Shown here: one piece after another, positions 41,701 to 63,276 of the stretch
How positions within the stretch are numbered: position 1 is the stretch's first letter
Layout: each line of letters begins with the position of its first letter
Assembly: GCA_024635455.1 (NCBI GenBank)
Contig: JAGXIU010000003.1
Span: 290,446 to 354,445, forward strand
Source: Candidatus Saccharimonadota bacterium
GTDB taxonomy: Bacteria > Patescibacteriota > Saccharimonadia > Saccharimonadales > SLHW01
Direction: 5' to 3'
Length of the DNA stretch: 64,000 bases
The notes under the pieces: model-generated
What the model was told of the DNA's origin: nothing
Database searches by the model: none
Seen by the model: only the letters and a program-made list of their open reading frames with translations
Made by a program: the position numbers and the translations under genes

Positions 41701-44160
41701 AAATCTTACGAAGCCGCCACTGTTACCGTGCATCAAGACGAGTACACTGTCGTCGCTATTGAAAGTGCTACCGAGCACTGTTCCAGGAATCGTAATATTG
41801 CCGTTGGAAATGTTGGTCCAGTTGGCAGGATCGGGGTCGGAGGAGTTGACAAAAACGACAGAGTTCGTAACAGGAGAATGTCCAACTACAAGAGTGTTTT
41901 CATCATTCGTAAAAAGCAAGCTTGCAGTATCGCCGGGTATGTTGATGTTGCTGTTGCTAATAGTATCCCAATCAGAAGGACTGACTGACTGCGGATTAAC
42001 ATCACTGTAGACTTCACCGCCACTGAAGTCGAGTGTACAGACGGCACCAGGGCCAAGCTCGGCGTACTGAAGCTTGTAGTTACCCTCTCCGACTGGCAGG
42101 TCACCAAGGTCTGTAGACATGCTGGCTCGCAAACGGAATGGCGTGTCCTCAGCCGGCGCAGTCACGGGAGTGTCTTGGGTGGCTAAGGGGCTACCAACCA
42201 AAGCCTCACTCGAGTACATAATCTGGTCATCAATAACAGTCGCAGTTGTGATGTCATCACTGTCATAGGTGTGTACCCGTACAAAAAACGGGTCGTTAGT
42301 TTTTGTAATGTCATCAAAGGTGAAGCCAACTGTTTCGTCCACGGCAAAGGCTTGAGCAGGGTTTTTGTTAATAACTATTTCATTAGTACTCGTATTAGTC
42401 GCGTCTTTGCTAAACCCAGTTGCTCCCCCTTGAGAATCAATCGTAAAGCCTGACACGTCTAAACCAGCGGGCGGTGTACAGGTTCCGCCATCTGCTATAG
42501 GATTGTTCTCGCAGTACTCAAAACGGAAAGCTCCTACGCTACTGGCTGTAGGCATATCAAAGCTAAACTCCTGTTGGCTCTCTAAGGTAAACGATCTAAC
42601 AGGGCGGTAGTTCGCAGAGTTATCTCTTGTAGTATTGCTCGCCTGGTTGCCACTTCCAAAAAATTGAAACCAAGCGGTGGTGGCAGTTACCTGAGAGGAG
42701 CTGAAATGAGGTAACGCTACATCAAAGCTACCAAGACCTTGCAAATGTAGGTTCACGTACATCTTATTCAGCTCAGCCTTGCTTGGCAAAAACCAATCAT
42801 TAAAACTGTTTAACGTATAGTTATCACTCTCACGAGCTGCGATTCCAGCAGTAGCACATCCTGCCAATATATCCTGAGTATTCTGCCTACCTGTACCTAT
42901 GTTAACGCCATTGGCCCCGCCTATTAAAGTACCAGAACACCCCCATGGTGCGGTGCCAGTAGATGTGGGAGCAGACTCGTAATAGGTACCGTCGTCTATG
43001 TGGAAAATAAGACCGCCTGCAGGACCGGTATCACCGAGGCTGTACGCCGGTACGGCAAAAGGATTGCTATCTACGACAACCGTGTGACTGGGCTCATTGT
43101 CAAACCAGCGGTAACTACTCTGCTCTAGGTCGACAGCTGGAGTGTAGGTCAGATCGACGTAGACGCTGGCGACGCGGATTTCATCAGCGCGGTTGCTTGG
43201 GTTACCACCACCAACAACGTTCCGCGTGAGTTGAACTTGTAGGCTGTCGATGTCAGCTTGGGTCCAGGAGCCGGTGTAGGAGATGGAGAACCAAGCGTAG
43301 CTGCCTATTGGGTATATGGTGGAGGCAGTTTGTAGTGTTCCATTGATACGGGCGTTAAGGCTAAGAGTGTCGATTTCCACCGAACTTGGATTTGCGGTGA
43401 CTGAGGTGGCGAAAACCCTGATTGTTATGCTGGTAGCCTCATCGATATTGCTAGCGGTGGACATAGTAAATTCATCAGTGTAGCTTGAGTTGGCAGTATC
43501 GGTGGCGATATAGCTAGCCATGTCTGGCGTGCTCCCGTCGTCTATCTCAGTGTAGTGGGACGTGCCGGTGGTGGTTGGCCAGCCGGTGGTAACGTCGCTG
43601 TCAGGAACTAAATCAGCGTTGGCGGCCTGCACGCTGAGCGCAAAGAATGGCAGAATCGCAATAGTCAAAAGAAAGCCGCCAAGCGCTGGGAAGAAGTGTT
43701 GACGGTACCAGGCTTTAAGCGTAGCTGGGAGTGTGCGTAGGAATGAACGGAGTGTTGCGGGGAACGCACGCAATCTTGCTGGAGCTTGGGTTATTGCTGT
43801 ACGGATAGTTTGCGGAGTGTTTTTGATGGTGAGACGAGCTGACGAGAATATACTGCGCCAGGTTCGCTGTGAGTTTGGAGCCGATGTTTGCTGACTGGGT
43901 TGCGTAGGAGGCTCGAGCGGAGTTGGGCTATGGCTCAGTTCGTTCGGGGTGGTTGAGTTGGCGGTGTCATTGTCCTGAATCTCAAGATTGGGCGTAGTGT
44001 CTGCTGAGTTGTTTGGTGTGGGAGGCTCGACGCGTTGTGGTTGCTGGCGAGCGTGGGTTGGCCCCGAGCGAGGAGGCTGTATGGCATTGCGTTCTACGAC
44101 TCGCACATGAATACGGGTTTGTTCTGCTGATTGAGTTGTTGAATCTTGTTTTTTTGTCAT
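38767..44160 (-). CDS. giant secreted/surface protein 2 (1797 aa) carrying a DUF1566-like module plus DSSDPDPANW-type and delta-60-like beta-propellers
   Basis: Uninterrupted 5.4-kb ORF with the same N-terminus, anchor and C-terminal tail as gene 1. Core contains FNDWFLPSKAELNKMY (DUF1566/Lcl-C-like), 7 x (ITFVDSSDPNPANW) blades and 7 x (W.(I/V)EKR...TG.L...FG..G) blades. Confidence 0.9.
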   Translation of the reverse strand: MTKKQDSTTQSAEQTRIHVRVVERNAIQPPRSGPTHARQQPQRVEPPTPNNSADTTPNLEIQDNDTANSTTPNELSHSPTPLEPPTQPSQQTSAPNSQRTWRSIFSSARLTIKNTPQTIRTAITQAPARLRAFPATLRSFLRTLPATLKAWYRQHFFPALGGFLLTIAILPFFALSVQAANADLVPDSDVTTGWPTTTGTSHYTEIDDGSTPDMASYIATDTANSSYTDEFTMSTASNIDEATSITIRVFATSVTANPSSVEIDTLSLNARINGTLQTASTIYPIGSYAWFSISYTGSWTQADIDSLQVQLTRNVVGGGNPSNRADEIRVASVYVDLTYTPAVDLEQSSYRWFDNEPSHTVVVDSNPFAVPAYSLGDTGPAGGLIFHIDDGTYYESAPTSTGTAPWGCSGTLIGGANGVNIGTGRQNTQDILAGCATAGIAARESDNYTLNSFNDWFLPSKAELNKMYVNLHLQGLGSFDVALPHFSSSQVTATTAWFQFFGSGNQASNTTRDNSANYRPVRSFTLESQQEFSFDMPTASSVGAFRFEYCENNPIADGGTCTPPAGLDVSGFTIDSQGGATGFSKDATNTSTNEIVINKNPAQAFAVDETVGFTFDDITKTNDPFFVRVHTYDSDDITTATVIDDQIMYSSEALVGSPLATQDTPVTAPAEDTPFRLRASMSTDLGDLPVGEGNYKLQYAELGPGAVCTLDFSGGEVYSDVNPQSVSPSDWDTISNSNINIPGDTASLLFTNDENTLVVGHSPVTNSVVFVNSSDPDPANWTNISNGNITIPGTVLGSTFNSDDSVLVLMHGNSGGFVRFVDSSSSDPGQWDNITNGISLPGVGWGARFSNDDNVLVLLHAGGNNITFVDSSDPNPANWSTITNNNIVFSSDGLDAVFSSDGDTLVLVHGGGDAITFVDSSDPNPANWSEITNNNVSLPNTSYKAIFNNDESLLIAAHRNNDKVTIIDSSDPDPSQWSIINNDNVYATGDAYDVAFNSDETILAIGHSFGDGITLVDSSDPDPTKWKLIPNSNIAVDNELIAAVAFAKNDNVLVFGHADGGNISFIDSTSVNTDPVAFYDNPDMTDGQGVAATADDPNPGSGTAVLQDYVESNPFTNSSIIPNGDYGIWDFSLVDNRAPGEAKFCFRTVDDTGGELSTYSVMPELNIEPPTLVQDDYRWFENGPSDVEFGTAGVIQSNFTANHDAAYDIAKDDQHMYVIGYEGVNGIDWRIEKRRLTDGALCTAAACGTEFGTGGGVTSNATANNDRPHRVLVDENYIYVAGYQTTSISPSTDSEWRVEKRDKITGELVTGFGASGFVTSNPGPADDEARSMAMDDQYLYIGGFYNASGDDQWRTEKRDKTTGDLVTGFGTNGVIQDNHSSGEDIMWAVAVDGSDLYLGGYDEADGALDAVIRVEKRDTTTGDLITGYANNGVYRNNFTPSGTDSLMYNTLVVDGDYVYFAGQAGDVATSSWHIMKQNKTNGALCDNTTDCPEGVFDSDGILLVDIASGGGTVTGLSFDGSYMYMVGTNTDTSNWQIEKRLKSDATPDTAFGSNGVVTYSQSATQEDPRGMVIDNTHMWVVGYDYAPGNYQWNIQKRKLTSGNLVDSANAEGATVGATLATQNQPASIDENQNARLRALVNVSVKDLGVSDFKIQYAPRIGDSCSTDFSGYAYLDIAPASDFISFYDSQLIATGESFKPSANDPDGGLVLSRQSYVESNNFSTLSLVPRESSAMWDFSLTEDASLGGNYCFRIVKSDGSLLDGYQYIPEISTPPRPQQFLRHGRWFDTGEQGRPFYW

Positions 44161-51147: not shown

Positions 51148-52254
51148 CTAGACCAATTGTTCCCACGGTAAGTCTAGCTTGCCAAAGTGGCCGTAGGCAG
51201 AGGTTGGCTGGTAAATTGGTCGACGCAAATCGAGCGTCTCGACAATCCCCTTCACCGATGTGTCGATGAGCTTGGCCGCAAAGGTATCAAGCTTAGACTG
51301 AGATACGGTTTCGGTGCCGAATGTTTCGATGGTTTGCATCAGCGGCTTTGGCTGGCCAATAACGTAGGCCAAGCCGACCTCACAACGCGAGGCTAGTTTT
51401 TGCGACACGATGTTTTTGGCAATATAGCGCGCTGCGTAAGCGCCGCTACGGTCGACCTTGCTCGGATCTTTACCGCTAAACGCTCCGCCGCCAACGCGAG
51501 CGTAGCCGCCGTAGGTATCGACCACAATCTTGCGGCCAGTCAATCCGGCATCAGAGTCTGGCCCTGGGATGTGCCAAACACCGGTACCGTTTATGATGAT
51601 GTTGTTTTTCTTTGGCACGGCTAGTCCAAAGCTTTCCAGCACCGGTGCAACGATGTGCTTGATGGCGTCAGCTCGAACTTCATCTGGCTCTGTCTCTTCG
51701 TGGTGGGCTACTGCCAATACCAGTTTTTCTACCGCTACCGGCTTATCGTCTTCGTAACGCACAGTCACCTGGGCCTTGCCGTCTGGCCGCAGCCACGCTA
51801 ACTTGTGCTCTTCCTGCTGCTGGTCAATGCGCCTGGTTAAGGCGTGCGCCAGACTGATTGGAAGTGGCATCAAGGCTTCAGTCTCGTCAACCGCGAAACC
51901 AAACATCATCCCCTGGTCACCTGCTCCGTCTTGATCAACGCCGACAGCGATTTCTGGCGACTGTTGGTGAACAAAGTTATGGAAGTTGGACTGGTCCGAA
52001 AAGCCCCAAGCTGGCTCGTCATAGCCGAGCGTTCGCACGGTGTCGCGTGCGATCGTCTCAAAATCCACAGTTGCGCGTGACTTGATTTCACCGAACAGGC
52101 TAATCTGATTGGCCCCAACCACCGCTTCGATACCGGTTCGGCTATAAGGGTCTTGAGCAATTGCGGCGTCAAGTAATGCATCGCTAATACGGTCGCAAAT
52201 TTTATCTGGGTGACCGCTACAAACGGATTCGCTGGTAAATAATCGTGTGGACAT
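51148..52254 (-). CDS. metK: S-adenosylmethionine synthetase
   Basis: GHPDKICD, GAGDQGMMFG and GGGAFSGKDPSKVDRS motifs. Confidence 0.95.
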   Translation of the reverse strand: MSTRLFTSESVCSGHPDKICDRISDALLDAAIAQDPYSRTGIEAVVGANQISLFGEIKSRATVDFETIARDTVRTLGYDEPAWGFSDQSNFHNFVHQQSPEIAVGVDQDGAGDQGMMFGFAVDETEALMPLPISLAHALTRRIDQQQEEHKLAWLRPDGKAQVTVRYEDDKPVAVEKLVLAVAHHEETEPDEVRADAIKHIVAPVLESFGLAVPKKNNIIINGTGVWHIPGPDSDAGLTGRKIVVDTYGGYARVGGGAFSGKDPSKVDRSGAYAARYIAKNIVSQKLASRCEVGLAYVIGQPKPLMQTIETFGTETVSQSKLDTFAAKLIDTSVKGIVETLDLRRPIYQPTSAYGHFGKLDLPWEQLV

Positions 52255-52473: not shown

Positions 52474-52630
52474 ATATCCTTTCTTGGCTTCTCAGCTTCA
52501 GAAAGGATATATCTCACGAGAAAATATCAATCCTGGGCTGTTTGTGCCAGGTCTAGTTGGAGCACCTTATCTTGATGATAGGTTGCTGGCGGATTAACGA
52601 GCTAGATCTCTCCCCGCGCTCTTTATATTC
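52474..52630 (-). promoter_or_regulatory. candidate SAM-I-clan riboswitch (aptamer ~52522-52630) plus SD-sequestering hairpin (52474-52510)
   Basis: The minus-strand RNA has several SAM-I-like elements. P1 is GAAUAU/AUAUUU. AUAAAGAG corresponds to the AUCAAGAG consensus. P2 is GCGG...CCGC with loop AGAUCUAG. P3 is GCAACC-hairpin-GGUGCU. J3/4 CUAGA is complementary to the P2 loop UCUAG (pseudoknot). P4 is CCUGG-N9-CCAGG. An 11-bp hairpin, AUAUCCUUUCU...AGAAAGGAUAU, covers the AAGGA SD 11 nt before the ATG. Confidence 0.5.
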
Positions 52631-52669
52631 TTAAATTGTTAACGTTTATACTGTAGCACGAACGCTGCG

Positions 52670-53113: not shown

Positions 53114-53243
53114 AATAACTCCTCTCAAAGTTCGTATAATTAGTACTATACTACCATGATTATGCCATTCTGTCGTGAGCTTTTTTATCAGAATGCCTAG
53201 ATAATATAACGCAGATTATGTATAATTCCCCCTGTCCAAACAT

Positions 53244-53317
53244 TGGGGATTAGCCAAGCGGTAAGGCAGCGGATTCTGGTTCCGCGATCGGGGGTTCGAA
53301 TCCCTCATCCCCAGCCA
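53244..53317 (+). tRNA. tRNA-Gln (anticodon CUG), CCA encoded
   Basis: Hand-folded: acceptor TGGGGAT/ATCCCCA, D arm GCC-AAGCGGTAA-GGC, anticodon arm GCGGA-TTCTGGT-TCCGC, T arm GGGGG-TTCGAAT-CCCTC, discriminator G, CCA. 74 nt. Confidence 0.9.
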
Positions 53318-53834
53318 TGAATGTGTTGATGAGCTTTTGCTCGTCGATACATTCATTGACACGGAGTGTTGGGTTTCGAACCCCCGTAGAATGAGCGCAA
53401 GCGAATGTGGGGTTCAGGGATTGAGCTTCACGCGCAGATGCTCGCATCGAGCATGAAGTGAAAAGCCACGATGTCATCCCTCATCCCCAGCCATGAAATG
53501 ACACCACCTTTGTGTGGTGTTTTTTCATGGCTCAAGTGGTTCGAACCCCCGTAGAATGAGCCGTAGCGAATGTGGGGTTCGGTGGAGCGAAGTCACGCGC
53601 AGAAGCTCGCTTCGAGTAAGCTTGAGCGGAAGAGACGAAGGCGATATCCCTCATCCCCAGCCATGAAAGAGAGTCACCTTGCGTGGCTCTTTTTCATGGC
53701 TATGAGTTGGGTTCGGTTCTCCGATCAGCGAACGAATGTGAGCAAGATCGGGGATTCGGGCATCAAGCTCGCGCGCAAGAGTTTACTCTGAGCACGAGTG
53801 CAGCATGCACTATGTCATCCCTCATCACCAGCGA
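53317..53834 (+). repeat. tRNA-proximal hairpin plus three tandem ~170-nt units (U1 53361-53530, U2 53531-53702, U3 53703-53834), each ending in a copy of the tRNA 3' end
   Basis: ATCCCTCATCCCCAGCCATGAA is identical at 53302 (the tRNA itself), 53476 and 53646; a degenerate form (ATCCCTCATCACCAGCGA) lies at 53817. In the tRNA, U1 and U2 the CCA is embedded in a long hairpin (CCATGAA...TTCATGG), followed by a T-run only in U1 and U2; U3's degenerate end has no hairpin. Confidence 0.85.
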
Positions 53835-54302
53835 GTGAATATGTACGTAGATTTTTTAATATGATTCTTGGATGTCAAGAAATGAAGACAGTCCCCTACT
53901 CTCAGCATCCCTTGAAACTTTTCCAAAGTAAGATTCGGTTGAGGCAGCTCAAGACACAAGTGACTCTACTGCTTATTAAAGAGCAGAAATTAGCTCTCTT
54001 GCTGAAGCTCCTGGCATCACACCACCTAGCGATGATTTGCTCGAAGATCACTTAGGACGAGTTGGTGCCAGAAAACTTCTAAACGAAAACCCGATTAGAG
54101 GCGGCAGATACTATTGGTTGCTGTAAGCCTTGGATTGTTATACTTCATTCCTTGATTTCCTTAAATAAACTTTTGTTATTTTTTACTTAAATAAAAGTTT
54201 TATTCTCGAATACTAGCTCCACCGTTGACTGACTAGAAATATTTTTATGCTCATGCTAAAGTAAATTTATGGATACTAAATCATATGTGAGGTGCACTTT
54301 AT

Positions 54303-56132
54303 ATGGTAAATATACGTCAACACTTGGCACAGACACTCCGTGCCGGATCTAGTTATGTCAAAAAACATCAAACCGTCGCTTTCTCAGAGTTATTCGCGCT
54401 AGCTGCCCTCCTCGTCCTTGGTTTGTCTTTTGCTTCATCTTCCACCAAGACGCTGACCTACCAAGGCAGTTTACATCACAAGGCTCCAGTTGAGACCTAT
54501 AACATCCGCTCAGCTGAAGGCGCATTTACTGCAGAACTCACATTTGCCGAGGACAAAAAAAATAATGCCGTCAATACTATGACTTTGGCCTTGCATGACG
54601 ATCAGGGTACACAGCTTGCCTTCAGTGAAAGTGGCAGTCCGGTTGCTATTTTTAACGAAGTTAACAAAGGTGAATACCGGATTACCGTTTCTACCAACGA
54701 CAGCTTTAAGGGCAATTCAGATTACACTCTCAAGGTTACTGTGCCAGCTTCAGACACAGTAGCCCCTTCAGTCAGTATAGATTCTCCCGGCAATGACGCT
54801 ACTGTCAGCGACACCATCTCAATCATCGTCACCGCCAGTGACGATGTAGCTGTAGACAGGGTAATTATACAAATAGATAACGGGGCAATACATACCTTGG
54901 ATAATACGGAGTCTTGGGAGTATAGCCTCGACACCACTACCCTCAACGACGGTGCTCACACAGCACTTGTCACCGCCTATGATACTTCTGAAAACGTAAC
55001 AAGTACTTCAGTTAGTTTTACGGTGGAAAACAGTACTCATAATGATGGTGTAAACACAGATGATAGCGAGAACACAACAGTTAGCGACTATTTATGGATT
55101 TCCCCGAGCACAATTGCTGATTTGCCAACAAGCGGTGATGCGTGGCAGGAAATTGTTGATGACGCAAATCGTCTGCCAGCAGACGGAGGCGGTGCTAGTG
55201 TTGGTGATCAGAACTCTAGGCACGACCAATATACGCTAGCTGCTGCACTTGCTTGTGTCCGTACCAACGAGACAAGCTATTGTGATAAAGCAACTGGTGG
55301 TTTACTCGATGCTATTGGCACAGAAACTGACGACAGAGGCCGTTGGCTGGCTGTTGGTCGCAATGTTGGTGCATATACGATTGCTGCAGATATCATGGAT
55401 CTTCGTGCTGACGGGGATCCCAACTCAGACGGGTCACAAATTGAAGCATGGTTATCTAATCTTCTAGAGCGAACTCTCGCAGATAACAACGACCCTGATG
55501 TACAGGAAAAACTTATACCGTTTGAGTCTGGCTCAAATGCGTCCGCACAAGAAGGGTTTGTTTACATAGCTATTGCAGCATATCTAGATGATCAGACTAA
55601 ACTTGATATAGGCTGGGATGCTTTCCGTACTTACGCTTGCGACCCTACTGCACCCGACAACGAGGATATCGATTTAGCCAAGGGTGTCGAGTATGGCTGG
55701 GCTCATGATGGCAGTAGCCCGTGTGCAATAAATCCACTGAATACTACCAAGGAAAGCGTGAGAATTGACGGTGCTATTATCAACGACATGCGTCGAGGCG
55801 GATACTTCACGGATCCCCCAGGCTATACCCAATACCCTTGGGTTGGTTTGGAGGGATTTGTACCAGCAGCTGTCGTACTTCAACGATCTGGATACCCAGC
55901 CTTTGACGTGGCGGATCAGGCAGTGCTAAGAACATTCCAGTATCTCGATTACCTTAAAGACAGAACTGGCGATACCAGGTGGTTCGATGGTAATCGAGCT
56001 GCAGAGACAATTCAGATTGTTAATACGGCATACGGTGAAAATTTCCTAATTTCCGTATCGGGTATTGGCGACGGAAGAACATTCGGATATACAGACTGGA
56101 CTCATACAGCCCAGTCAACGATTTACCCCTAA
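54303..56132 (+). CDS. secreted/membrane-anchored protein with bacterial Ig-like domain and uncharacterised C-terminal domain
   Basis: GAGGTG SD and an N-terminal TM. Ig-like segment: VAPSVSIDSPGNDATVSDTISIIVTASDDVAVDRVIIQIDNG...VSFTVEN. The ~340-aa C-terminal region has no motif I can name. Confidence 0.75.
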   Translation: MVNIRQHLAQTLRAGSSYVKKHQTVAFSELFALAALLVLGLSFASSSTKTLTYQGSLHHKAPVETYNIRSAEGAFTAELTFAEDKKNNAVNTMTLALHDDQGTQLAFSESGSPVAIFNEVNKGEYRITVSTNDSFKGNSDYTLKVTVPASDTVAPSVSIDSPGNDATVSDTISIIVTASDDVAVDRVIIQIDNGAIHTLDNTESWEYSLDTTTLNDGAHTALVTAYDTSENVTSTSVSFTVENSTHNDGVNTDDSENTTVSDYLWISPSTIADLPTSGDAWQEIVDDANRLPADGGGASVGDQNSRHDQYTLAAALACVRTNETSYCDKATGGLLDAIGTETDDRGRWLAVGRNVGAYTIAADIMDLRADGDPNSDGSQIEAWLSNLLERTLADNNDPDVQEKLIPFESGSNASAQEGFVYIAIAAYLDDQTKLDIGWDAFRTYACDPTAPDNEDIDLAKGVEYGWAHDGSSPCAINPLNTTKESVRIDGAIINDMRRGGYFTDPPGYTQYPWVGLEGFVPAAVVLQRSGYPAFDVADQAVLRTFQYLDYLKDRTGDTRWFDGNRAAETIQIVNTAYGENFLISVSGIGDGRTFGYTDWTHTAQSTIYP

Positions 56133-56520
56133 TCGTATAGTCCTAGGCCACTACGATCGATAACCGAAATCAACGGCGGATGACATGTTGCGTTTATCTG
56201 ACGAAGGGGTATGGTTTTTAGCACCGGGAGCTTAAAGCAGCACTTAAATCACAAGCCGACGTATATTGAAACCTTTATTAACTAATGCTTGTCACTTCCG
56301 ATTAGATGCATGTAATACTAGCGATACTAATTTTCCGTAATCGATCGCGTAAAGATTTTATCCCGCTTGCCCCGTAGCCAGTCTCGTCATCAAATCCGAC
56401 CAAAGCTTTACCCACGAGTTCAACAAGAACGGCACCTACTCCTGCCGAGACTTATTCAATCTCTAAACCAGCGATTCAGTTGTAGTAGCTGAGCAGGAGC
56501 AGAACACCCCTCCTACAGCG

Positions 56521-57117
56521 TTAGGGTAATCTTCCGAGGAAAAGAGCCCGAAGGCTAATGCTGATCCATATGAATGATATGAAAGTGAAGCAGAGAAAGG
56601 TCAGCGCCGAAAGAAGAATGCGTACCATGTCGGTACTATAGATAATTCCTGTTATTGATATTTCTGTCAACGGTACGGCTAAGTAGGCTAGCCCGGCAAT
56701 TACACCTAGGATTATGCTCGCAGCTAGAAGGTGAAAAATGGCGTGAAGCGCAATACTACCCCAAAATGACAGCTGATTAAAATTTTTAGGGTGCTGGTAC
56801 CGAAATGCTATGTTGAAGTCTCTCACTACCTCATCCGATCCTCGCTTTATGTAAAGCGCGACAGAAAATACAACTACTCCTAATAGATACCATAAAATGT
56901 ATTGGACAACATTTTCAATTGCAGGCAGCTGGCTTAGTCCAGATAGCCAAGAGTTGATTGTCTCACCAACAAATACTCGTGTTTCATATGTTATTGACGG
57001 ATCCGTAGTTTTGAGGTGGGTATAGATTAAGCTGCCCCCAAGTATAAGAATGGAAAGAAACCCGTATAGTAGTGATTCTAACTTAGATGGCAGTATCCAC
57101 GCTAGGTGTTTCTTCAT
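56521..57117 (-). CDS. polytopic membrane protein, hypothetical
   Basis: 198 aa with about 5 hydrophobic helices. Confidence 0.6.
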   Translation of the reverse strand: MKKHLAWILPSKLESLLYGFLSILILGGSLIYTHLKTTDPSITYETRVFVGETINSWLSGLSQLPAIENVVQYILWYLLGVVVFSVALYIKRGSDEVVRDFNIAFRYQHPKNFNQLSFWGSIALHAIFHLLAASIILGVIAGLAYLAVPLTEISITGIIYSTDMVRILLSALTFLCFTFISFIWISISLRALFLGRLP

Positions 57118-57436
57118 TAAGTTTATTTTAACGTAAAAATTGCAAACATCGTAGTTCTTGTGCTTTTAGCTAGTTGTGTTAAGCGATTAAAACTTATCAT
57201 CGAAGATGGTCTGGCAGGCAGACGCAGACTTTACATAGGTCATTCTGAAAATTAGGCCTCAGGATGAAGGAGTTTGCCGCTGTATGACATATACCAGCAC
57301 AATCATATAGAACTTTAATCTGGTCTTTGCTCGCAAAACCCCTCTTTTTTCTCTAAGCAATAATCGATAGCCTTTGTGCATTTGTGCGCCATCCCTAACA
57401 CCTTTTATCTGAATCTGTTTGCGACTTGATCCAAAC

Positions 57437-57721
57437 TTAGTCGATTTGCTTAACGTAAACACGTAGGCCTCCTTTCTTAGTTCTTTCAAAATGAATATCT
57501 GTCTTGGGGTCGGTAAGCATAGACTCATAATGGACAAGTGCGTTAACACCTATGTCAGCAAACATAGGGCTTGCACTGGCTACATCTGCCTCAGGTTCTT
57601 CAACTTGCTGATTTTCACTGTCATCAAAATCAGCTCGTAGGTACATATCATTCTTCTGATAAACGGTATATCGAGGACGTCGGTTGTAGCGAACACCAAC
57701 AACAATCCACTCGATAATCAA
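57437..57721 (-). CDS. hypothetical protein (possibly disrupted)
   Basis: 94-aa ORF. A second ORF in another frame (57259-57549) overlaps its 3' end, which is compatible with a frameshifted gene. Confidence 0.35.
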   Translation of the reverse strand: MIIEWIVVGVRYNRRPRYTVYQKNDMYLRADFDDSENQQVEEPEADVASASPMFADIGVNALVHYESMLTDPKTDIHFERTKKGGLRVYVKQID

Positions 57722-57785
57722 CCGACCCTTGATACGAATTGCCAGGGTTAAAAATATAGCTGATATTACGCCAACAATGATTACC

Positions 57786-57971
57786 TTTTCATGGCTATGA
57801 GTTGGGTTCGGTTCTCCGATCAGCGAACGAATGTGAGCAAGATCGGGGGGGGTTCGGGCATCAAGCTCGAGCGCAAGAGTTTACTCTGAGCACGAGCGCA
57901 GCATGCACTATGTCATCCCTCATCCCCAGCCATGAAAGAGAGTCACGCAAAGGTGACTCTCTTTCATGGCT
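57786..57971 (+). repeat. unit U4 of the tRNA-3'-end repeat family, with a perfect 19-bp terminal hairpin
   Basis: Well over 90% identical to U3 by eye (a few substitutions and one small indel) from TTTTCATGGCTATGAG onward. ATCCCTCATCCCCAGCCA at 57915-57932. Hairpin AGCCATGAAAGAGAGTCAC-gcaaag-GTGACTCTCTTTCATGGCT at 57928-57971. Confidence 0.85.
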
Positions 57972-58018
57972 GCATGTATTTCGAATCTCTTACATCCATG
58001 CGCGAACGGCTAGACTCC

Positions 58019-59788
58019 CTAGTTCCCTATCCGGGTGCCGCCTTGTATGTTAGCCCCGCCGTCTATGTACGTGTTGCCGCTCGCCGGTGCTGCCGCTGTG
58101 GTGAAGCTGAAGATACTTGAAACAGTGCTTTCGGTGTTGCTTCCACCTGGATCAATGGCGTAGGCACGCCACCAGTACTGGGTAGAGTATTCGAGTAATG
58201 GCTCTTGGTACTGGTGTGAGGCAAGCGTAGAGCCGCCCAGTGTGGTACTAGTGACATATGCACTCCCGGTTAAGGCATCCTGACCGCTCCACCCAGTTTG
58301 ACTGAGTGTTTGGTCGATAGTACGAAGAACGCTTAAACAAGAGTTGTCTTCACAAAGCTCAATACGATAGCGGACAGCATTCGACTCCGAGTCAGTTGTA
58401 CGGAGCTGCAGAGTTGGCTGCAGGCTCACGTCAATTGCTGTGTCTGCAGGGGTACTGAGAGTTGGTGCGGCTGGTGGCTGGTTAACCGGCGGTGGGTCTA
58501 CAGTAGTAAAGCTATAGATACTAGAAATGCTACCTTCGGTGTTGCTGCCGCCTGGGTCAATAGCATACGCACGCCACCAATATTGGGTACTTTCACTAAG
58601 TGCTGGGTCTTGGTAAGTATGGCTAGCTAGGGTTGAGTTAGCCAGAGTGCCACTACCAACGTATGCCGTACCAGACTCGGCATCTTGCCCGCTCCAGCCC
58701 ACCTGGCTCGTAGATTGGTCGATAGTGCGCACTATAACCGAACAGTCGCTAACCGAACACACCTCAATACGGTAGCGCAAGTAGTCATTTTCAGCGTCGG
58801 AGGAGCGCAACTGGAAAGTGGGCGTCACAATCACGTCAGTTGCTGTGTCTGCAGGGGTACTGAGAGTTGGGGCAGACGGCGGCTGGTTGGCTACTGGGAC
58901 TGGATTAATTGCAAGTATTTGCCCAGCATTAGTCGTGTTGGTGCCAGTTGCCGTCCGTGTGCCGGTACCCCCAGCAGTAGGCCAAGGCTCTTGAGCAATA
59001 CGGACAGCATTACGTGCACTGTCTTGGCCAGCGCCAGAAGCTATAAAGCCCACGCTAATCATGCTGGCTGGCTCAGCAATATTATTGCCGCTATCATGTC
59101 CAAAAAATCCAACTAGCATTGTATTATCCCGATTTGGAGAAATTGAAGGGGCGACAATATTTATCCCAGTGTTCTTCTGTTTACCAAAAACATTTATAGG
59201 ACTCGCTGTATCTATACCACTGTAGGTCGCGGCAACAGCAATTGCCTTTCGGCTATCAACCTCAAAACCAGTCTGAGTAAAATAATTAAAATCAAATGTA
59301 TAACTAGTCGGATCTCCTGACTGAATGACACGACTATATATTATCTGTTCACTGCAAGGGGCCGAAGTTAAGCCTGCCGAGTTACCACACGACAATTCAG
59401 TACTCATTACTTCAGTCAACAAGTTGCTACTAACAGTACCTGTACTCGTACCCTCTTTTGAGCTTACAACTATCAATAATAGATCACCTGCTACTGCCTC
59501 GGTGGGCACATTTATTATGATAGAACTGGCGTTGTTCACAGAAGCAGTCGTGGCCGTACCGCGCTGCTGAATTTGCGCGCTGATATTAGTCGGTGAAATA
59601 ATAAATACAGTAGCCAGGCTAAATATTACTACAATCAAAAGCAAGATAATTTTCGCTGCATATTTACTCAAGTCCGGCCACACGCCAGAAAGCCTACTCT
59701 GAGCGAATTCGCCTAATGAATCTGAACACGCAGCTACATCTATATCGTATGTATAATTTTTACTACTGTAACGAGATAGTGAGCGCAT
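58019..59788 (-). CDS. secreted/membrane-anchored protein with two tandem ~135-aa FN3/Ig-like repeats
   Basis: N-terminal TM (IILLLIVVIFSLATVFII). Internal duplication (NQPP[SA]APTLSTPADTA.DV...YWWRAYAIDPGGSNTE...FSFTT) at ~58085-58485 and ~58497-58890. Confidence 0.75.
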   Translation of the reverse strand: MRSLSRYSSKNYTYDIDVAACSDSLGEFAQSRLSGVWPDLSKYAAKIILLLIVVIFSLATVFIISPTNISAQIQQRGTATTASVNNASSIIINVPTEAVAGDLLLIVVSSKEGTSTGTVSSNLLTEVMSTELSCGNSAGLTSAPCSEQIIYSRVIQSGDPTSYTFDFNYFTQTGFEVDSRKAIAVAATYSGIDTASPINVFGKQKNTGINIVAPSISPNRDNTMLVGFFGHDSGNNIAEPASMISVGFIASGAGQDSARNAVRIAQEPWPTAGGTGTRTATGTNTTNAGQILAINPVPVANQPPSAPTLSTPADTATDVIVTPTFQLRSSDAENDYLRYRIEVCSVSDCSVIVRTIDQSTSQVGWSGQDAESGTAYVGSGTLANSTLASHTYQDPALSESTQYWWRAYAIDPGGSNTEGSISSIYSFTTVDPPPVNQPPAAPTLSTPADTAIDVSLQPTLQLRTTDSESNAVRYRIELCEDNSCLSVLRTIDQTLSQTGWSGQDALTGSAYVTSTTLGGSTLASHQYQEPLLEYSTQYWWRAYAIDPGGSNTESTVSSIFSFTTAAAPASGNTYIDGGANIQGGTRIGN

Positions 59789-60371
59789 GCTTTTTTTGGT
59801 GGATCCGTTATGTGACTAATGCTTTATATTGTACCCTAGCACAACCGTACAATAAACTTTTTTACGTACAGGCACTGCCCAGGGTGCGCAAGCACTCCCA
59901 CCAAAGTGGAATTACTAATCTATATAAGTCAGTTAACGGTGTAGATTCGAAATATATGCTTATGTAGCTACACTTATCAACCAGATGTGTATTCATGTAT
60001 ACTCATCCCGCCCACTCCGACGTAACGCCACCCAATTAAAAATGCTTGATATTTCAAGTGTAGTGTAGAAACTGTCTATTTAGTGCGCTCATGAACTTGT
60101 ACATCTAGGAATACTCGTAGTCTCATTGTACGATTTTCTTGTTGCTACCCTTCGGCAGCTCGAGCTCCTAGCCCTGAACTAGACACAGTTAGCATATTGT
60201 GTATGATCCGATTATGGCGTGCCGTATATGTGATGTGATAGTGACACCTCATGAGGCTATTAGAGAAAATTTAGCAAGACCTACCTATCAGGAGGCCTGT
60301 TAATACTCCTAATCTAATAACCGTGGCCTCTTTTGTAGTATCAAGACCAAGAAATCTTCATGAAACTGACC

Positions 60372-60562
60372 CACTAGCCACAGACAAAGAAAGTCCAGGC
60401 ATCAAAGCCGGGTTTTTCTTTGGCTCGAGTGCCTCGAACCCCCGATGCGTCCGTCATATATGACGGACAAGCATTCGGCGGGTTCGGGCATCAAGCTCGC
60501 GCGCAAGAGTTTACTCTGAGCACGAGTGCAGCATGCACTATGTCATCCCTCACCCCCAGCCA
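60372..60562 (+). repeat. unit U5 of the tRNA-3'-end repeat family, preceded by a degenerate junction and hairpin
   Basis: CCCACTAGCCA, then hairpin CAAAGAAAGTCCAGGC-atcaaa-GCCGGGTTTTTCTTTG. The following 60-nt core GGGCATCAAGCTCGCGCGCAAGAGTTTACTCTGAGCACGAGTGCAGCATGCACTATGTC is identical to U3. Ends in ATCCCTCACCCCCAGCCA (60545-60562). Confidence 0.8.
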
Positions 60563-60907
60563 AGACGGACATTTAAATAGACCTATCTAGGTCTATATTT
60601 ATATAATCATGCCGTGAAATATGCATTGAACGAAAGTAATACAATCTGTTAAAAATCTTGACGTATTACACTTTTTGAAGCCATCGCTTTATCAACCAGT
60701 ACTAATATGTTTAATAAACATCTTGGTTCGTTTTACTCTCAAACTCTTGCATAAGTTATCTTGTGTCGTAGCGCACTGACAGCACACAGTAGTTTGCCCT
60801 ATTGTTGTATTAGCAAGCAACTTATGGCTCGCTAGGCACGGGAGTGGCAATGTTGAGGAAGTAAGTTAGGTATTGCTCTACTATATTAATTAATAGAAAG
60901 GTTTCTT

Positions 60908-61057
60908 ATGTTGATAAAAATTGCAATCGGATTGTTTATATTATGGGCGCTTGGTTTTTTCGCGACGAATATAGGCGGAGGTTTAATTCACATCCTGTTA
61001 GTGGTAGCACTTGTTCTATTTATATATAACATGCTGACCAGCAAACGAAGCGCATAG
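60908..61057 (+). CDS. lmo0937-family small membrane protein (49 aa)
   Basis: Below the track's size cutoff. Own translation: MLIKIAIGLFILWALGFFATNIGGGLIHILLVVALVLFIYNMLTSKRSA. GAAAGG SD upstream. Confidence 0.6.
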   Translation: MLIKIAIGLFILWALGFFATNIGGGLIHILLVVALVLFIYNMLTSKRSA

Positions 61058-61198
61058 CATAAAGCGATAATTATATTTGGCAAGTTCAATGCACCTCAAG
61101 TTAGAACAAGGGGCATGAGTAGTGGCGACCCAAAGTATGTATGAATTCGTTTATATAACGAGTTATATTAAGATTTTTAGACGGAAGGGAGGTTTTAA

Positions 61199-61714
61199 AT
61201 GTTGAAAAAAGTAAGTGTTCTACTGTTCACTGTCGGTTTGCTGGGAATTAGTTTTTACGGTATGTCTAACAACTCGTACTACGTACAGATACTCATGAAT
61301 CTAAGTACGCTTTTTATATATATCCGCATCGCGATTGTTGCGATCCTATTAACCTACGTTTTCGTACCGAGCATACGACTCTACACAACAAGAACCCTGC
61401 TTAGTATTAGTGGTATTTTGCTAGTATCACTCGGAGTGATTAGCTTAGCCTCCCCTTCCTTGTTGGGGTACACCAGTCCATATATATTACTTGGAGACAC
61501 GTTAACTCTAATTGAAGCAGGTATATTTGCAATCATACTCAGCGCTGAACTTTCTGCTCAAAGATCCAGGTTTATTGCTAGAAGTTATCATTACGTACGG
61601 TTACTAATTGGTTTTCGACCTAGAGCTGTATCATACCAGCCAGCAATGTATATAATCATGGCTCAGAAGAATCAACTAAAGCTAAAACCAGTAAAAACTT
61701 ACTCAATCTTATAG
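61199..61714 (+). CDS. polytopic membrane protein, hypothetical
   Basis: GGGAGG SD; 171 aa; 4-5 TM helices. Confidence 0.6.
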   Translation: MLKKVSVLLFTVGLLGISFYGMSNNSYYVQILMNLSTLFIYIRIAIVAILLTYVFVPSIRLYTTRTLLSISGILLVSLGVISLASPSLLGYTSPYILLGDTLTLIEAGIFAIILSAELSAQRSRFIARSYHYVRLLIGFRPRAVSYQPAMYIIMAQKNQLKLKPVKTYSIL

Positions 61715-61821
61715 TCTCTGTAAATTGATAAATCACTGAACCCAAGCTACAAATTTAATTAAAACTTTTCTTTGATTGTATACCAACCCTCATACCTGTG
61801 TGTCGTGTGCTAGCTCAAACT

Positions 61822-61852
61822 AAAAAGACCTCCATTCACTGGAGGTCTTTTT
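61822..61852. terminator. bidirectional rho-independent terminator AAAAA-GACCTCCA-ttcac-TGGAGGTC-TTTTT
   Basis: Perfect 8-bp GC-rich stem flanked by A5 and T5, between convergent genes 61199-61714 (+) and 61862-62071 (-). Confidence 0.8.
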
Positions 61853-61861
61853 ATCATGGTT

Positions 61862-62071
61862 TTAGGCGTACCTGTCCCTCATTCTTCTGGCAATGTGTCG
61901 GAATTCTTGCCTCATTGAAGCGCTATTTTCCAATAACTCGGCCTCGAGTTCTGGTGATGTGCCGTCAGATGTATAATCCAGTGGCTCGTTTGCATTATAG
62001 AGATACGCTTGGTAATGAACTTTTGAATGCTTTTGATGTTTGTTCTTTATTGCAGAATATGATCTTGACAT
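61862..62071 (-). CDS. small basic/acidic hypothetical protein (69 aa)
   Basis: ATG at 62071 preceded by AGGAGGAGTAAT. The track's longer version (to 62137) has no SD. Confidence 0.55.
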   Translation of the reverse strand: MSRSYSAIKNKHQKHSKVHYQAYLYNANEPLDYTSDGTSPELEAELLENSASMRQEFRHIARRMRDRYA

Positions 62072-62244
62072 ATTACTCCTCCTATTAATAGGTTGCAGAA
62101 CAAAGCCTAGCAATTTTCGTAACACTCCCCCCTTCAATGATGTGCCAAAAAAGATAGCTACTGAATCTATAATAGTACTAATGCTATACGCTGTATGTGC
62201 GCTCTATCACGGAATTAAGCTGCACAAAGGTATATACTATCACT

Positions 62245-62922
62245 ATGTCAACAAATCAAATGGCTGGTATGCCCAATTTAGGAACTACAGATGAAAGCAT
62301 CATCGCTCATTTCAGCGACGGGTTACTTATGCAGTTCACTGATAGAGAAACTATCATTAATGGTCTGGATGAACCTGAGGGTATATATCTAATCAAAAAA
62401 GGCTTCGTGAAAGCATACTCTACATCAAAAGCAGGCAATGGAAATCTATTATTAATACACACTGTTGGTGAGTTTATACCTCTGCCCTGGGCACTGGACG
62501 GAGCACATACAACTGGACTATTTTATGAAGCAATGTCAGATGTGACTGTACTCCGTGCTTCTAAAGATGAATTGCGTACGGCAATGGGTAAAAATGCTTG
62601 GTTATCTCAAGAGATATTAAAGCAAGCTGTGGCCATTATTACTGCCTACACTCAGAGAATACAAACTTTAGAATTTAGATCTGCTAGAGGAAGAATAATT
62701 GCCGAAATACTGGCTCTATCTGAAAGGTTTGGAGAAAGACGTGGTAAAGAAGTACTAATTAATGCTCCGCTAACACATCAGGATATTGCAGATTCAATTA
62801 ATATGAACCGCGAAACAGCAAGCAGAGCATTAGAGCAGCTTTTTCAAGAAGGTTTATTGGGCCAAAAAGATCATCTTATTTCAATACTAGATCTTCCTGA
62901 GCTACAAGAAGCACTTAGTTGA
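62245..62922 (+). CDS. Crp/Fnr-family transcriptional regulator
   Basis: cNMP-binding beta-barrel (GIYLIKKGFVKAY...) and a C-terminal HTH (THQDIADSINMNRETASRALEQL). Start ambiguous (62197 GTG or 62245 ATG). Confidence 0.8.
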   Translation: MSTNQMAGMPNLGTTDESIIAHFSDGLLMQFTDRETIINGLDEPEGIYLIKKGFVKAYSTSKAGNGNLLLIHTVGEFIPLPWALDGAHTTGLFYEAMSDVTVLRASKDELRTAMGKNAWLSQEILKQAVAIITAYTQRIQTLEFRSARGRIIAEILALSERFGERRGKEVLINAPLTHQDIADSINMNRETASRALEQLFQEGLLGQKDHLISILDLPELQEALS

Positions 62923-63156
62923 TATTATCTGCTAGAAAGTAAAGAATGATTAGTGCTACTTATTGGTGTGTTAGAGGAATTGGCACCTCACGAAAGGTAG
63001 CAAATCCTACTCGTGGCAATATTGAAGTGACAGGAAGTATCATGCGAGAAAAATTCAAAAAACTGCTTAATAATTATAAAGATTGGCAGAAACAATAGTA
63101 GCCTTTTTTAATGTCTGTTTTATCTTGTTTTAGCCTATTGCGATGCATCAGACCGA

Positions 63157-63218
63157 CACCCCCAGCCAAGCAAGTAACCTTATTCTTCAATAGTGTTACT
63201 TGCTTTGGCTGCTTTTTT
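63157..63218 (+). repeat. distal partial copy of the tRNA-3'-end motif (CACCCCCAGCCAAG) embedded in a terminator hairpin
   Basis: 14-nt identity with the U5 end (60551-64). Hairpin AGCCAAGCAAGTAAC-N16-GTTACTTGCTTTGGCT then GCTTTTTT, which is the same 'CCA inside a hairpin' architecture as the other units. Confidence 0.55.
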
Positions 63219-63276
63219 ACTTATCATTTCTGCGTCGAACGTCTTGAAAATTTCCTAGTAAACCCTAGCAACTTTA

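Follow-up and report, generated by a model that had tools for sequence, protein, structure and literature searches.

The five repeated units that follow the tRNA-Gln(CTG) gene in the window (the whole 64,000-nucleotide, or 64-kb, stretch of DNA that was analysed) belong to a large, uncatalogued family found at tRNA 3′ ends in Saccharibacteria and probably also in other Patescibacteria. Most likely, these units are end markers of small stretches of inserted DNA. Insertion elements that are moved in trans, and whose site acts in single-stranded form, are suggested by tandem arrays, by the cargo lying between units and by one polymorphism between strains. Our preferred reading, to which we assign a probability of about 0.45, is that the units are a family of miniature structured elements at tRNA 3′ ends, mobilised in trans and read as a folded strand. 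Mobility in trans, by a putative enzyme, is an assumption here. In window coordinates, the locus is laid out as follows.

53244–53317, + strand: tRNA-Gln(CTG) gene with encoded CCA (ARAGORN; Rfam tRNA model, 60.8 bits)
53318–53357, + strand: hairpin straight after the tRNA CCA, TGAATGTGTTGATGAGC-tttt-GCTCGTCGATACATTCA (sequence; lacks a T-run and is not called as a terminator)
53361–53493, + strand: unit U1 (sequence; match to covariance model R1 at 53408–53493, E 4e-9)
53378–53415, + strand: U1 H1 hairpin, GAACCCC...GGGGTTC (sequence)
53408–53412, + strand: U1 T-stem 5′ half (sequence)
53426–53430 (CTTCA) with 53454–53458 (TGAAG), + strand: U1 arm helix (sequence)
53431–53437, + strand: U1 box CGCGCAG (sequence)
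53438–53447, + strand: U1 H2 (sequence)
53448–53453, + strand: U1 box CGAGCA (sequence)
53476–53482, + strand: U1 AT and T-stem 3′ half CCCTC (sequence)
53483–53493, + strand: U1 acceptor 3′ strand and GCCA (sequence)
53494–53532, + strand: palindromic terminator 3′ of U1, CCATGAAA...TTTTCATGG, its stem reaching into CCA (sequence; terminator scan, stem 53500–53521 and T-run)
about 53530–53663, + strand: unit U2, a consensus "type A" member (model R1, 73 bits, E 3.7e-16)
53543–53580 and 53573–53663, + strand: U2 H1 and predicted three-way-junction core
53664–53701, + strand: palindromic terminator 3′ of U2, CCATGAAAGAGAGTCAC-cttgc-GTGGCTCTTTTTCATGG (sequence; repeat families D2, D9 and D17)
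about 53705–53834, + strand: unit U3, tail decayed with 2 mismatches (model R1, E 1.4e-7)
53719–53753 and 53750–53834, + strand: U3 H1 (CTCCGATC...GATCGGGG) and core
53835–57785: cargo 1, a 609-aa Big_7 (bacterial Ig) protein and ORFs of 198, 96 and 94 aa (ORF list, Pfam; no recombinase)
about 57800–57932, + strand: unit U4 (model R1, E 1.7e-9)
57814–57848 and 57848–57932, + strand: U4 H1 and core
57927–57972: 20-bp palindromic terminator 3′ of U4, taking in CAGCCA (terminator scan)
57973–60419: cargo 2, a 589-aa Ig-like repeat protein on the minus strand (ORF list, Pfam)
60420–60562, + strand: unit U5 (model R1, E 3.9e-9; fold z-score −6.2)
60436–60485 and 60478–60562, + strand: U5 long H1 with a perfect inner hairpin, and core
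60563–63156: cargo 3, a 171-aa ORF and a Crp-family regulator (ORF list, Pfam)
63157–63219, + strand: 12-nt tRNA-Gln tail remnant (63157–63168), hairpin CAGCCA/TGGCTG, then a T-run (repeat D6; sequence)

The 18-nt tail found in each of U1–U5 derives from the tRNA-Gln(CTG) gene, which is preceded by a promoter-like TAGATA-17-TATAAT at 53198–53226 (promoter scan). With up to three mismatches allowed, the 18-mer ATCCCTCATCCCCAGCCA occurs six times on the + strand, once as the tRNA 3′ end and once in each unit; 0.02 copies are expected from shuffled sequence, and six were reached in none of 100 shuffles. Model R1, built from metagenome homologues only, recovers exactly U1–U5 from the 64-kb window, all on the + strand (E 4e-16 to 1e-7), and the five units represent three subtypes. 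Single-sequence folding energies were informative for U5 only. Since the hairpin directly behind the tRNA lacks a T-run, read-through from tRNA-Gln into U1 is possible. The promoter scan gave no promoter-like sites ahead of U2–U5, which are bracketed by terminators, and independent expression of the units is unlikely. Two public contigs that match the window stop at the tRNA, the repeats coinciding with an assembly break.

Each unit runs from H1 through a T-stem 5′ half with TTCG and a conserved two-arm module of about 65 nt to a copy of the local tRNA that runs towards CCA. An earlier, sequence-only reading had recognised in the units the 3′ half of a tRNA T-arm and acceptor, interrupted after TTC by some 60 nt of structured insert. 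This is borne out for U1–U5, with the break after TTC(G): (G)GGGTTC and ATCCCTC are spaced by 60 nt in U1, 65 nt in U2 and 59 nt in both U4 and U5, and the T-loop of the five units is interrupted by 59–65 nt. All the helices it had listed are likewise present, namely GAACCCC/GGGGTTC in U1 and U2, the long U5 hairpin with its inner GTCCGTCATAT/ATATGACGGAC, AGAG-ttta-CTCT and GTGCA-gca-TGCAC in U3–U5, and CTCCGATC/GATCGGGG in U3 and U4. As small corrections, U4 reads AGCGCAAGA and not CGCGCAAGA, and U3 has GGGGATTC in place of GGGGTTC and a tail with two mismatches, CATCACCAGCGA; the U5 tail is the variant TCACCCCCAGCCA. The hairpin ATGCTCG-cat-CGAGCAT proposed for U1 is not a helix conserved in the family. 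The conserved helix is instead (G)ATG-CTCG-CAT(C), with the boxes CGCGCAG and CGAGCA on either side.

From position 59/60 on, the 3′ block reproduces the local tRNA. It agrees with that tRNA through CCA at 17 of 17 positions in 24 units; the remaining units mostly match over 3–15 nt and then mostly diverge abruptly, and in two no match was located. U1, U2, U4 and U5 end in NCCA, as do 24 of 47 family members, the others being truncated or replaced. The T-stem 5′ half is identical to that of the local tRNA in only 17 of 47 units and is still paired with the 3′ half, and the 5 nt preceding the 3′ block covary with it. The 3′ block is tRNA-derived; the T-stem 5′ half is borne by the element and kept complementary. 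Nine of 37 units carry an inverted copy of the tail at their 5′ edge (at least 7 of 9 positions), and a terminal inverted repeat, real in this subset, was rejected as a general feature.

On the tRNA-sense strand, the predicted fold of the core is a three-way junction, which the split T-stem closes. The MAFFT alignment A5 has 91.8% of its cells paired, compared with 31–42% when partners are slid, and changes on both sides of a pair number 146 cells against 47.9 ± 6.8 in shuffles (the observed value was reached in 0 of 500). The 70-hit alignment A6 gives 91.3% paired cells and 307 double-change cells against 99 ± 9.5, and RNAalifold independently recovered the same three helices. G-U exceeds A-C at 46:27 and 76:43, and one single column accounts for 15 and 18 of the A-C cells; this excess indicates that the tRNA-sense strand is the one that folds. 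Compensatory changes had been claimed from the window units, and covariation is strong with homologues aligned; the description generalises to a large family. The covarying helices, taken with the preference for G-U over A-C, indicate that one strand folds, which argues against an ordinary double-stranded integrase arm. A transcribed RNA would account just as well for the covariation and the surplus of G-U.

Model searches gave 12 matches in Saccharibacteria genome loci and about 85 in metagenome contigs. A pattern independent of the 3′ end retrieved at least 120 metagenome loci, about 60 of them true units; since this pattern prescribed the boxes GGTTCGGTG, GCGCAG and CGAGCA, their apparent invariance in the metagenome set is an ascertainment effect. 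Neither an empty site nor an excised circle was seen. All loci were chosen for having a unit, a sample in which presence/absence alleles of a bare unit are invisible. A same-strand tRNA lies upstream of 47 of 59 units, and in 43 of these 47 the tRNA ends 65–115 nt ahead of the GGTTCGG motif. At least 12 tRNA species carry units downstream, oriented with the tRNA strand. The hairpin between tRNA and unit begins at the first or second C of CCA in 38 of 43 loci, and in most units a terminator alone separates unit and tRNA. Arrays of two to three units occur at L014, L037, L047, L071, L084, L096, L110, L119, L135, L139, L140 and L143, and modules that are 93–94.5% identical are joined to different tRNA tails, once within a single contig. 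Rfam scans in gathering and E-value modes (window, array and eight related loci) returned only tRNAs and a SAM riboswitch, and we found no published description of the family in the literature searched; it is uncatalogued and has no matching Rfam family.

Foreign genes lie between or behind tandem units. In the window, U3 and U4 form a 147-nt direct repeat flanking cargo 1, and repeat D7 (53691–53753 = 57786–57848) comprises 63 identical nucleotides ahead of and into both. Cargo 3 is bounded by a 14-nt direct repeat, CACCCCCAGCCAAG, in the U5 tail and in the remnant; this remnant (63157–63219) is probably the native tRNA end with its terminator, displaced by about 9.8 kb of insertions. The strain polymorphism is seen at L125, which, compared with the 99%-identical L119, has an extra 1.25 kb of cargo after the unit's ...CCTGCCC and then a second partial unit. 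At L003, L155, L032, L116 and L136, units preceded by cargo keep a short ...CCA remnant and a palindrome directly 5′. On this evidence, at least some of the cargo arrived at the tail of the tRNA or unit by another route, and recombination need not involve the module.

A search for the mobilising enzyme gave no recombinase among the 46 window ORFs (Pfam). Clustering of 313 neighbouring ORFs revealed no protein family that recurs around 59 units, and the 25 Pfam families most often matched by 140 downstream ORFs include neither recombinases nor transposases. A Y1 HUH transposase or RAYT was likewise not seen, either in the window or close to units. Type IV secretion pilins, Fic, HTH and NUDIX proteins are the recurrent downstream families. 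A recombinase encoded in cis was rejected on these grounds (window ORFs, 59-unit neighbourhoods and most recurrent downstream families). Likewise, the window ORFs and unit neighbourhoods held no integrase whose arms would explain the conservation. The module pattern had no match in IMG/VR, nor did INPHARED phages match one consensus-type unit used as query. The 18-mer identified two viral contigs in IMG/VR (L068 and L069) with a classical 31-nt tRNA-Gln block, in which the T-loop is intact and the module absent. A phage origin was rejected, given the absence of the module from IMG/VR and, for one unit, INPHARED, and the viral tRNA-Gln copies that lack it. Also rejected was a 5′ leader of the downstream gene, the first downstream ORF being co-oriented in 31 loci and opposite in 18.

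We propose that a unit and its terminator together form a miniature non-autonomous insertion element, or else the conserved end of such an element. An enzyme encoded elsewhere would move the units and would read a folded single strand, as with integron attC sites or IS200/IS605-type ends. Pairing of the element's T-stem half with the T-stem half of a tRNA may help to choose or hold the target. Each insertion would regenerate a tRNA-like tail as a landing site for more units and cargo islands, and repeated landing on such tails could have built the window array.

A serious rival is that the units are genes of non-coding "tRNA-trailer" RNAs, made by read-through from the tRNA promoter and folding into a three-way junction with a single-stranded tail of the cognate tRNA. 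Such RNAs might serve as tRNA-specific decoys, processing substrates or regulators; arrays and cargo would then be incidental, because tRNA 3′ ends are hot spots of integration anyway. We regard this as plausible, though less likely than the preferred reading. It accounts for helices that all covary, with G-U favoured on the tRNA-sense strand, for an orientation that is always that of the tRNA, for tandem G-A pairs, and for the H2 loops, which are G(CUUG)C tetraloops typical of RNA. No T-run terminator lies between tRNA and U1, one following only after U1 itself, and some cargo clearly entered the tail independently of the module. However, the units have no promoter of their own, a strong palindromic terminator separates tRNA and unit in most loci, and several diverse units are stacked behind one tRNA. 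The full acceptor-CCA tail is missing in about half of the units. A consistent 5′ acceptor strand is absent, the best upstream 7-mer complement reaching 4–7 of 7 positions (mostly 5–6) at scattered distances in a comparison made without a shuffle control. In addition, most of the loops in H1 and H3 belong to the C(GAA)G, C(AAA)G and C(GCA)G triloops, which are unusual in RNA and form very stable mini-hairpins in DNA, and no Rfam family matches.

The sequence-only reading had offered two interpretations of its own. A tRNA-minihelix-like RNA fails on the inconsistent 5′ acceptor strand, the broken 7-nt T-loop and the roughly half of units without full acceptor-CCA; both ARAGORN and the Rfam tRNA model called only real tRNAs and no units. 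A recombination-site arm is the better fit to arrays, cargo and polymorphism, although not in the form of an ordinary double-stranded integrase arm.

Among known systems, integron attC sites bound cassettes, measure about 60–140 nt, conserve structure more than sequence and fold on one strand. Their stems contain mismatches and bulged bases, and CALIN arrays can occur without a local recombinase. The units share the size range, the conservation of structure over sequence, the folding of one strand, the mismatches or bulged bases within the stem and the lack of a local recombinase. In contrast to attC, they form a predicted three-way junction and not a single long hairpin, are anchored to a tRNA and not to attI/intI, and mostly delimit empty "cassettes", their cargo genes lying in both orientations. 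Alignments A1, A3 and A5 contain no GTTRRRY or RYYYAAC core boxes, the unit ends being GAACC... and ...ATCC with the T-stem. Nor is there an intI or an attI/Pc platform; the array starts at a tRNA gene, with no integrase in 64 kb.

The ends of IS200/IS605 elements and REP/RAYT sequences are short, non-coding, strand-specific hairpins on which a single-copy enzyme acts in trans on single-stranded DNA, and IS200/IS605 targets are read by base pairing with a short guide beside the hairpin. Strand-specific hairpins are common to both groups, with H1, the arm and H3 on the + strand and G-U above A-C. The target of a unit would be the tRNA T-loop and tail, whereas IS200/IS605 elements use a tetranucleotide, and an 18-nt target copy is retained. 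A fuller version of the preferred reading, which we consider doubtful, is a tRNA-anchored gene-capture or insertion system of Patescibacteria. It would use a single-stranded DNA three-way junction, targeting by T-stem pairing, an enzyme encoded by the host or genome, and the regenerated tail as the next landing site; such a system would be integron- or IS200-like, pairing-guided and retargetable to any tRNA.

Williams (2002) reportedly sorted tRNA-gene integration into sublocation classes, with direct repeats of the 3′ segment from the T-loop. The units could be taken for ordinary attR scars of repeated integrase-driven accretion of prophages or islands, in which the approximately 110 nt 5′ of the tail would be an attP arm and the cargo and integrase would have been deleted; we hold this to be improbable. 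In its favour, direct repeats of a tRNA 3′ segment starting in the T-loop are the textbook signature of tRNA-gene integration (PMC9897764), and such a repeat is found at the far end here (the 18-mer six times; 24 units at 17/17). The Dehalococcoides ssrA islands are a comparison case for tRNA-gene fragments and tandem accretion of integrative elements (PMC3146451). With attR fragments, the units also share multiple downstream copies, accessory genes between them and an intact tRNA. The 31-nt block of L068 and L069 indicates that classical elements exist for tRNA-Gln, and cargo 3 and the cargo of L003 and L155 resemble classical tail insertions. However, the units differ in that the T-loop of the repeat holds a conserved module, about 65 nt long, that covaries and is specific to a single strand, and double-stranded protein-binding arms need neither compensatory helices nor one-strand G-T over A-C. 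One and the same module is used with at least 12 different tRNAs, and in most copies a terminator is all that lies between unit and tRNA. No integrase was found nearby, the viral collections searched do not contain the module, and the classical viral copies have an intact T-loop without it.

The 178-bp tRNA-linked repeats of E. coli tyrT, compared here together with rtT RNA (Rfam RF00391), end in the last ~19 nt of the tRNA and are transcribed with the tRNA operon. Downstream repeated units that end in the last nucleotides of a tRNA are a shared feature. The tyrT repeats, however, are limited to one operon, whereas the units occur with many tRNA species in many genomes. Nothing in the tyrT repeats corresponds to the split T-stem or the module, and neither sequence nor model similarity was seen. 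The rtT model was not among the matches listed, whether the window was scanned in gathering mode or the array and eight related loci by E-value.

Archaeal non-canonical tRNA introns at 58/59 lie in the T-loop and, like the group I introns of Patescibacteria tRNAs, share with the units an insertion in a tRNA loop whose flanking stem is preserved. It is very improbable that the units are decayed tRNA pseudogenes or tRNA 3′ halves with a T-loop intron of the archaeal 58/59 or Patescibacteria group I kind: the module does sit exactly in the T-loop between TTCG and AT with the T-stem kept, and tRNA introns are abundant in Patescibacteria (PMC13011429), but the 5′ two-thirds of the tRNA are missing (D-arm, anticodon arm and 5′ acceptor strand), neither ARAGORN nor the Rfam tRNA model calls the units, Rfam scans gave no group I intron match, the Patescibacteria introns described are at 35/36 in the anticodon loop (PMC13011429), and the same tRNA is encoded intact immediately upstream.

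The unit family marks variable DNA behind many Saccharibacteria tRNA genes. The genomes of Saccharibacteria and their relatives are tiny, the cells live attached to other bacteria, and little is understood of how these organisms acquire and reshuffle accessory genes. If the units are the working ends of trans-mobilised elements, they would represent a new route of gene capture that recognises its target by pairing. Should they be RNAs, they would form a new and abundant class of tRNA-linked RNA, with the T-loop as insertion point. On either reading, the covariance model provides a practical marker of island boundaries.

According to ARAGORN and Rfam, the sole tRNA gene in the 64 kb encodes tRNA-Gln(CTG). 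Its final 18 bases, ATCCCTCATCCCCAGCCA, recur downstream in five further copies on the same strand with 0–2 mismatches, where shuffles predict 0.02 occurrences. Every copy is the end of one unit of ~130 nt (U1 to U5) comprising an upstream hairpin (H1), a T-stem 5' half with TTCG, a structured module interrupting the T-loop, and the tRNA tail. The helices and motif that the sequence-only reading had listed are all present in these units, small corrections aside. The locus is arranged as follows:

53244-53317, + strand: tRNA-Gln(CTG)
53361-53493, + strand: U1
about 53530-53663, + strand: U2
about 53705-53834, + strand: U3
between U3 and U4: cargo 1
about 57800-57932, + strand: U4
between U4 and U5: cargo 2
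60420-60562, + strand: U5
3' of U5: cargo 3
63157-63219: remnant of the tRNA-Gln tail (12 nt), plus a CCA-anchored terminator of its own

Palindromic terminators with stems that extend into CCA follow U1, U2 and U4. The cargo stretches look foreign; they contain genes for Ig-domain surface proteins and a Crp regulator, together with small ORFs. The remnant at 63157 probably marks where the tRNA locus natively ended; ~9.8 kb now separate the two. The remnant shares with the U5 tail a T-to-C variant, a change that would not pair with A6 of the present tRNA, and this sequence variant suggests a common history for the two, distinct from that of the tRNA now in place. A 589-aa Ig-like cargo protein (ORF 58019-59788, − strand) contains internal repeats of ~405 nt with 76–77% identity (58082-58888) and is thus a surface protein built of repeats. 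Two Logan contigs identical to the window at 44-53 kb and carrying this exact MetK (L001, L002) both stop within the tRNA-Gln gene; short-read assemblies break where the unit array lies.

Elsewhere in the window, the following features were recorded:

52521-52631, − strand: SAM (S-box) riboswitch, scoring 48.9 bits (gathering score 44.4)
33171-38534, − strand: giant ORF of 1787 aa with Kelch / beta-propeller repeats
38767-44160, − strand: adjacent giant ORF of 1797 aa, with zero Pfam matches

The metK gene (51148-52254) lies downstream of the riboswitch, and a 69-aa ORF separates the two. Short acidic-coding repeats, GTCATCAGA / ATCATCGTCA, occupy 63281-63391 at the end of a PepSY-domain protein (ORF 63277-63981, − strand). 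The window ORFs also include Pfam matches to GatB and a GatA-type amidase (2371-5718, − strand), placed by ORF size at 2371-3861 and 4282-5718. GatB/GatA is the tRNA-Gln-dependent amidotransferase and lies ~48 kb from the tRNA-Gln locus; the presence of both in one window is probably a coincidence.

The units are members of a large, real family. A scan of one genome per species, with a pattern spanning the insert and the tRNA-Gln tail, revealed homologues in about a dozen Candidatus Saccharibacteria assemblies and a divergent one in a single Peregrinibacteria assembly. At seven genome loci a tRNA was found, each time tRNA-Gln(CTG) on the same strand 5' of the unit; the remaining loci have just a ...CCA remnant. 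As in the window, MetK adjoins tRNA-Gln(CTG) at L014, L047 and L037/L043, so that a Saccharibacteria origin of the window is very probable. A metagenome scan, its pattern taken from the insert alone and blind to the 3' end, returned at least 120 loci, with ~60 true units among the matches listed. Here tRNA-type tails of many kinds stand behind the same insert. ARAGORN placed a same-strand tRNA upstream of 47 of 59 metagenome units, ending 65–115 nt ahead of the GGTTCGG motif in 43 of those 47. At least 12 tRNA species are represented (Gln, Met, Ser, His, Lys, Val, Arg, Ala, Pro, Asn, Asp and Tyr), and at 38 of 43 loci nothing but a long palindrome, starting from the first or second C of CCA, separates tRNA and unit. 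Moreover, modules of near-identical sequence carry tails from different tRNAs; in one case both lie on a single contig, at two of its tRNA loci, and the pair shows a compensatory difference in the arm.

The 3' block of the unit is a copy of the local tRNA, starting at T-loop position 59/60. In 24 units it is identical through CCA (17/17). Most others match over 3–15 nt and then mostly diverge abruptly, a pattern in the sequence more like a junction than like decay by point mutation; for two units, a tail match was not located. The 5 nt ahead of TTCG pair with the T-stem 3' half, yet they equal the local tRNA's own T-stem 5' half in just 17 of 47 cases. Thus, the tail is tRNA-derived, and the T-stem 5' half belongs to the element and is kept complementary. 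H1 is built on this same 5' half and its partner strand covaries with it (1.49 of 3 variable pairs with the unit's own sequence, versus 1.15 ± 0.08 in permuted units), making H1 and the split T-stem alternatives that compete for one set of bases. An inverted tail copy occurs at the 5' edge of a subset of units; a consistent 5' acceptor strand was looked for in the units and not found.

The core fold is a three-way junction of the split T-stem, a long arm and a short hairpin, H3. The long arm consists of a covarying helix with a tandem G-A step, an internal loop made of the boxes CGCGCAG and CGAGCA, and hairpin H2. In a MAFFT alignment of 37 metagenome units (A5), 91.8% of cells hold standard pairs, compared with 31–42% when partners are slid by 1–3 columns. 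Double-sided changes number 146 cells versus 47.9 ± 6.8 in shuffles, with 0 of 500 shuffles as high, and RNAalifold returned the same three helices unprompted. A covariance model built from A5 identifies exactly U1–U5 in the window, Saccharibacteria loci only among 67 genome and viral loci, and 70 hits in 100 metagenome loci; these 70 show 91.3% pairing and 307 double-change cells versus 99 ± 9.5. The boxes GGTTCGGTG, GCGCAG and CGAGCA were set by the search pattern, and their invariance in the metagenome set is no evidence; they do vary in the window units and in second units of arrays. G-U cells outnumber A-C cells 46:27 and 76:43 (a single column holding 15 and 18 of the A-C), with G-U in excess in 14 columns and A-C in five. 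It is therefore the tRNA-sense strand that folds. H3 loops are triloops in 36 of 48 cases, and C(GAA)G, C(AAA)G and C(GCA)G predominate in H1 and H3. Loops of the C(GAA)G type are known from very stable DNA mini-hairpins and hint at DNA folding, an argument that is not decisive because H2 has G(CUUG)C loops, which are classic for RNA.

We tentatively read the units as the site of an insertion element, with a probability of about 0.45. The palindrome and unit together would form a miniature insertion element that is non-autonomous, or else the conserved end of such an element. An enzyme acting in trans may recognise one strand in folded form, as happens at integron attC sites or IS200/IS605 ends; pairing between the two T-stem halves could help to choose the target, and each insertion event would regenerate the tail for the next.

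Units pile up behind single tRNAs: five, of three subtypes, in the window, and two or three at many other loci. U3 and U4 form a 147-nt direct repeat flanking cargo 1, with the initial 63 nt identical. Two 99% identical loci from one sample, L119 and L125, differ by an extra 1.25-kb cargo in L125, placed after the unit's ...CCTGCCC and followed by a second, partial unit, with the full tail restored. In L003, L155, L032, L116 and L136 a short ...CCA remnant and a palindrome stand between the cargo and the unit; part of the cargo is independent of the module. L143 has another kind of right end, directly adjoining the tRNA block at the same position. From these two observations, tRNA and unit tails are general landing sites. 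The additional ends are located as follows:

L143, about 5815-5880 and about 6480-6530: second-type element ends, GCATAATCTATCATYGAGTGTTC, abutting the tRNA block (ATCC...) at two different tRNA-Ser genes
L003, about 3820-3850, and L155, about 1130-1160 (oriented coordinates): cargo ends, AAAAGTTTGGAAT, a few bases 5' of the tRNA-tail remnant

GGAGTGTT, related to GCATAATCTATCATYGAGTGTTC, occurs at the 5' edge of U1 (53363-53370), of L155 and of the second L037 unit. AAAAGTTTGGAAT, found in two unrelated loci, may be the right end of one tail-inserting island family.

No recombinase or transposase gene is present among the 46 window ORFs, and the genes next to the units have no recurring protein family. 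Among 140 downstream ORFs, the 25 Pfam families seen most often, including T4SS pilins, TrbC, Fic, HTH and NUDIX, represent accessory genes. T4SS_pilin / TrbC is the commonest (12/140). In L072 (2185-6570) and L168 (3092-7593), units are followed by runs of small paralogous ORFs in tandem; we infer that T4SS_pilin / TrbC belongs to these runs.

The main rival, a tRNA-trailer RNA gene made by read-through, is somewhat less probable but a serious one. A T-run is missing between the tRNA and U1, as read-through would have it, but terminators stand at most other loci, U2–U5 lack promoters and the acceptor-CCA tail is often lost. A role as 5' leader was rejected, the first downstream ORF being co-oriented at 31 loci and opposite at 18.

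The tyrT repeats of E. coli are tRNA-tail repeats downstream of the gene. Such repeats are well known for integrative elements (PMC9897764). The units share this repeated tail with both; that they are plain attR scars is improbable. A conserved, covarying module lodged within the T-loop of the repeat is new. Usual phage attP sites were rejected as a match, as viral tRNA-Gln tail copies have an intact T-loop and no module. The only viral contigs found with such a tail, L068 (1112-1142) and L069 (9350-9380) from IMG/VR, carry a 31-nt tRNA-Gln 3' copy, ATCGGGGGTTCGAATCCCTCATCCCCAGCCA, without the full tRNA; these blocks are likely att sites of Saccharibacteria phages using the same tRNA. IMG/VR contains no match to the module pattern, and a search of INPHARED phages with one consensus-type unit gave no match. 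Intron or pseudogene readings are very improbable, group I introns of Patescibacteria tRNAs lying at position 35/36 and not in the T-loop (PMC13011429). The units have zero Rfam matches (tRNA-like, ribozyme, intron or rtT), and the family was not found in the literature searched. Also new are its mostly cargo-less units, without any recombinase, and the spread of the module over many tRNA species within one bacterial lineage.
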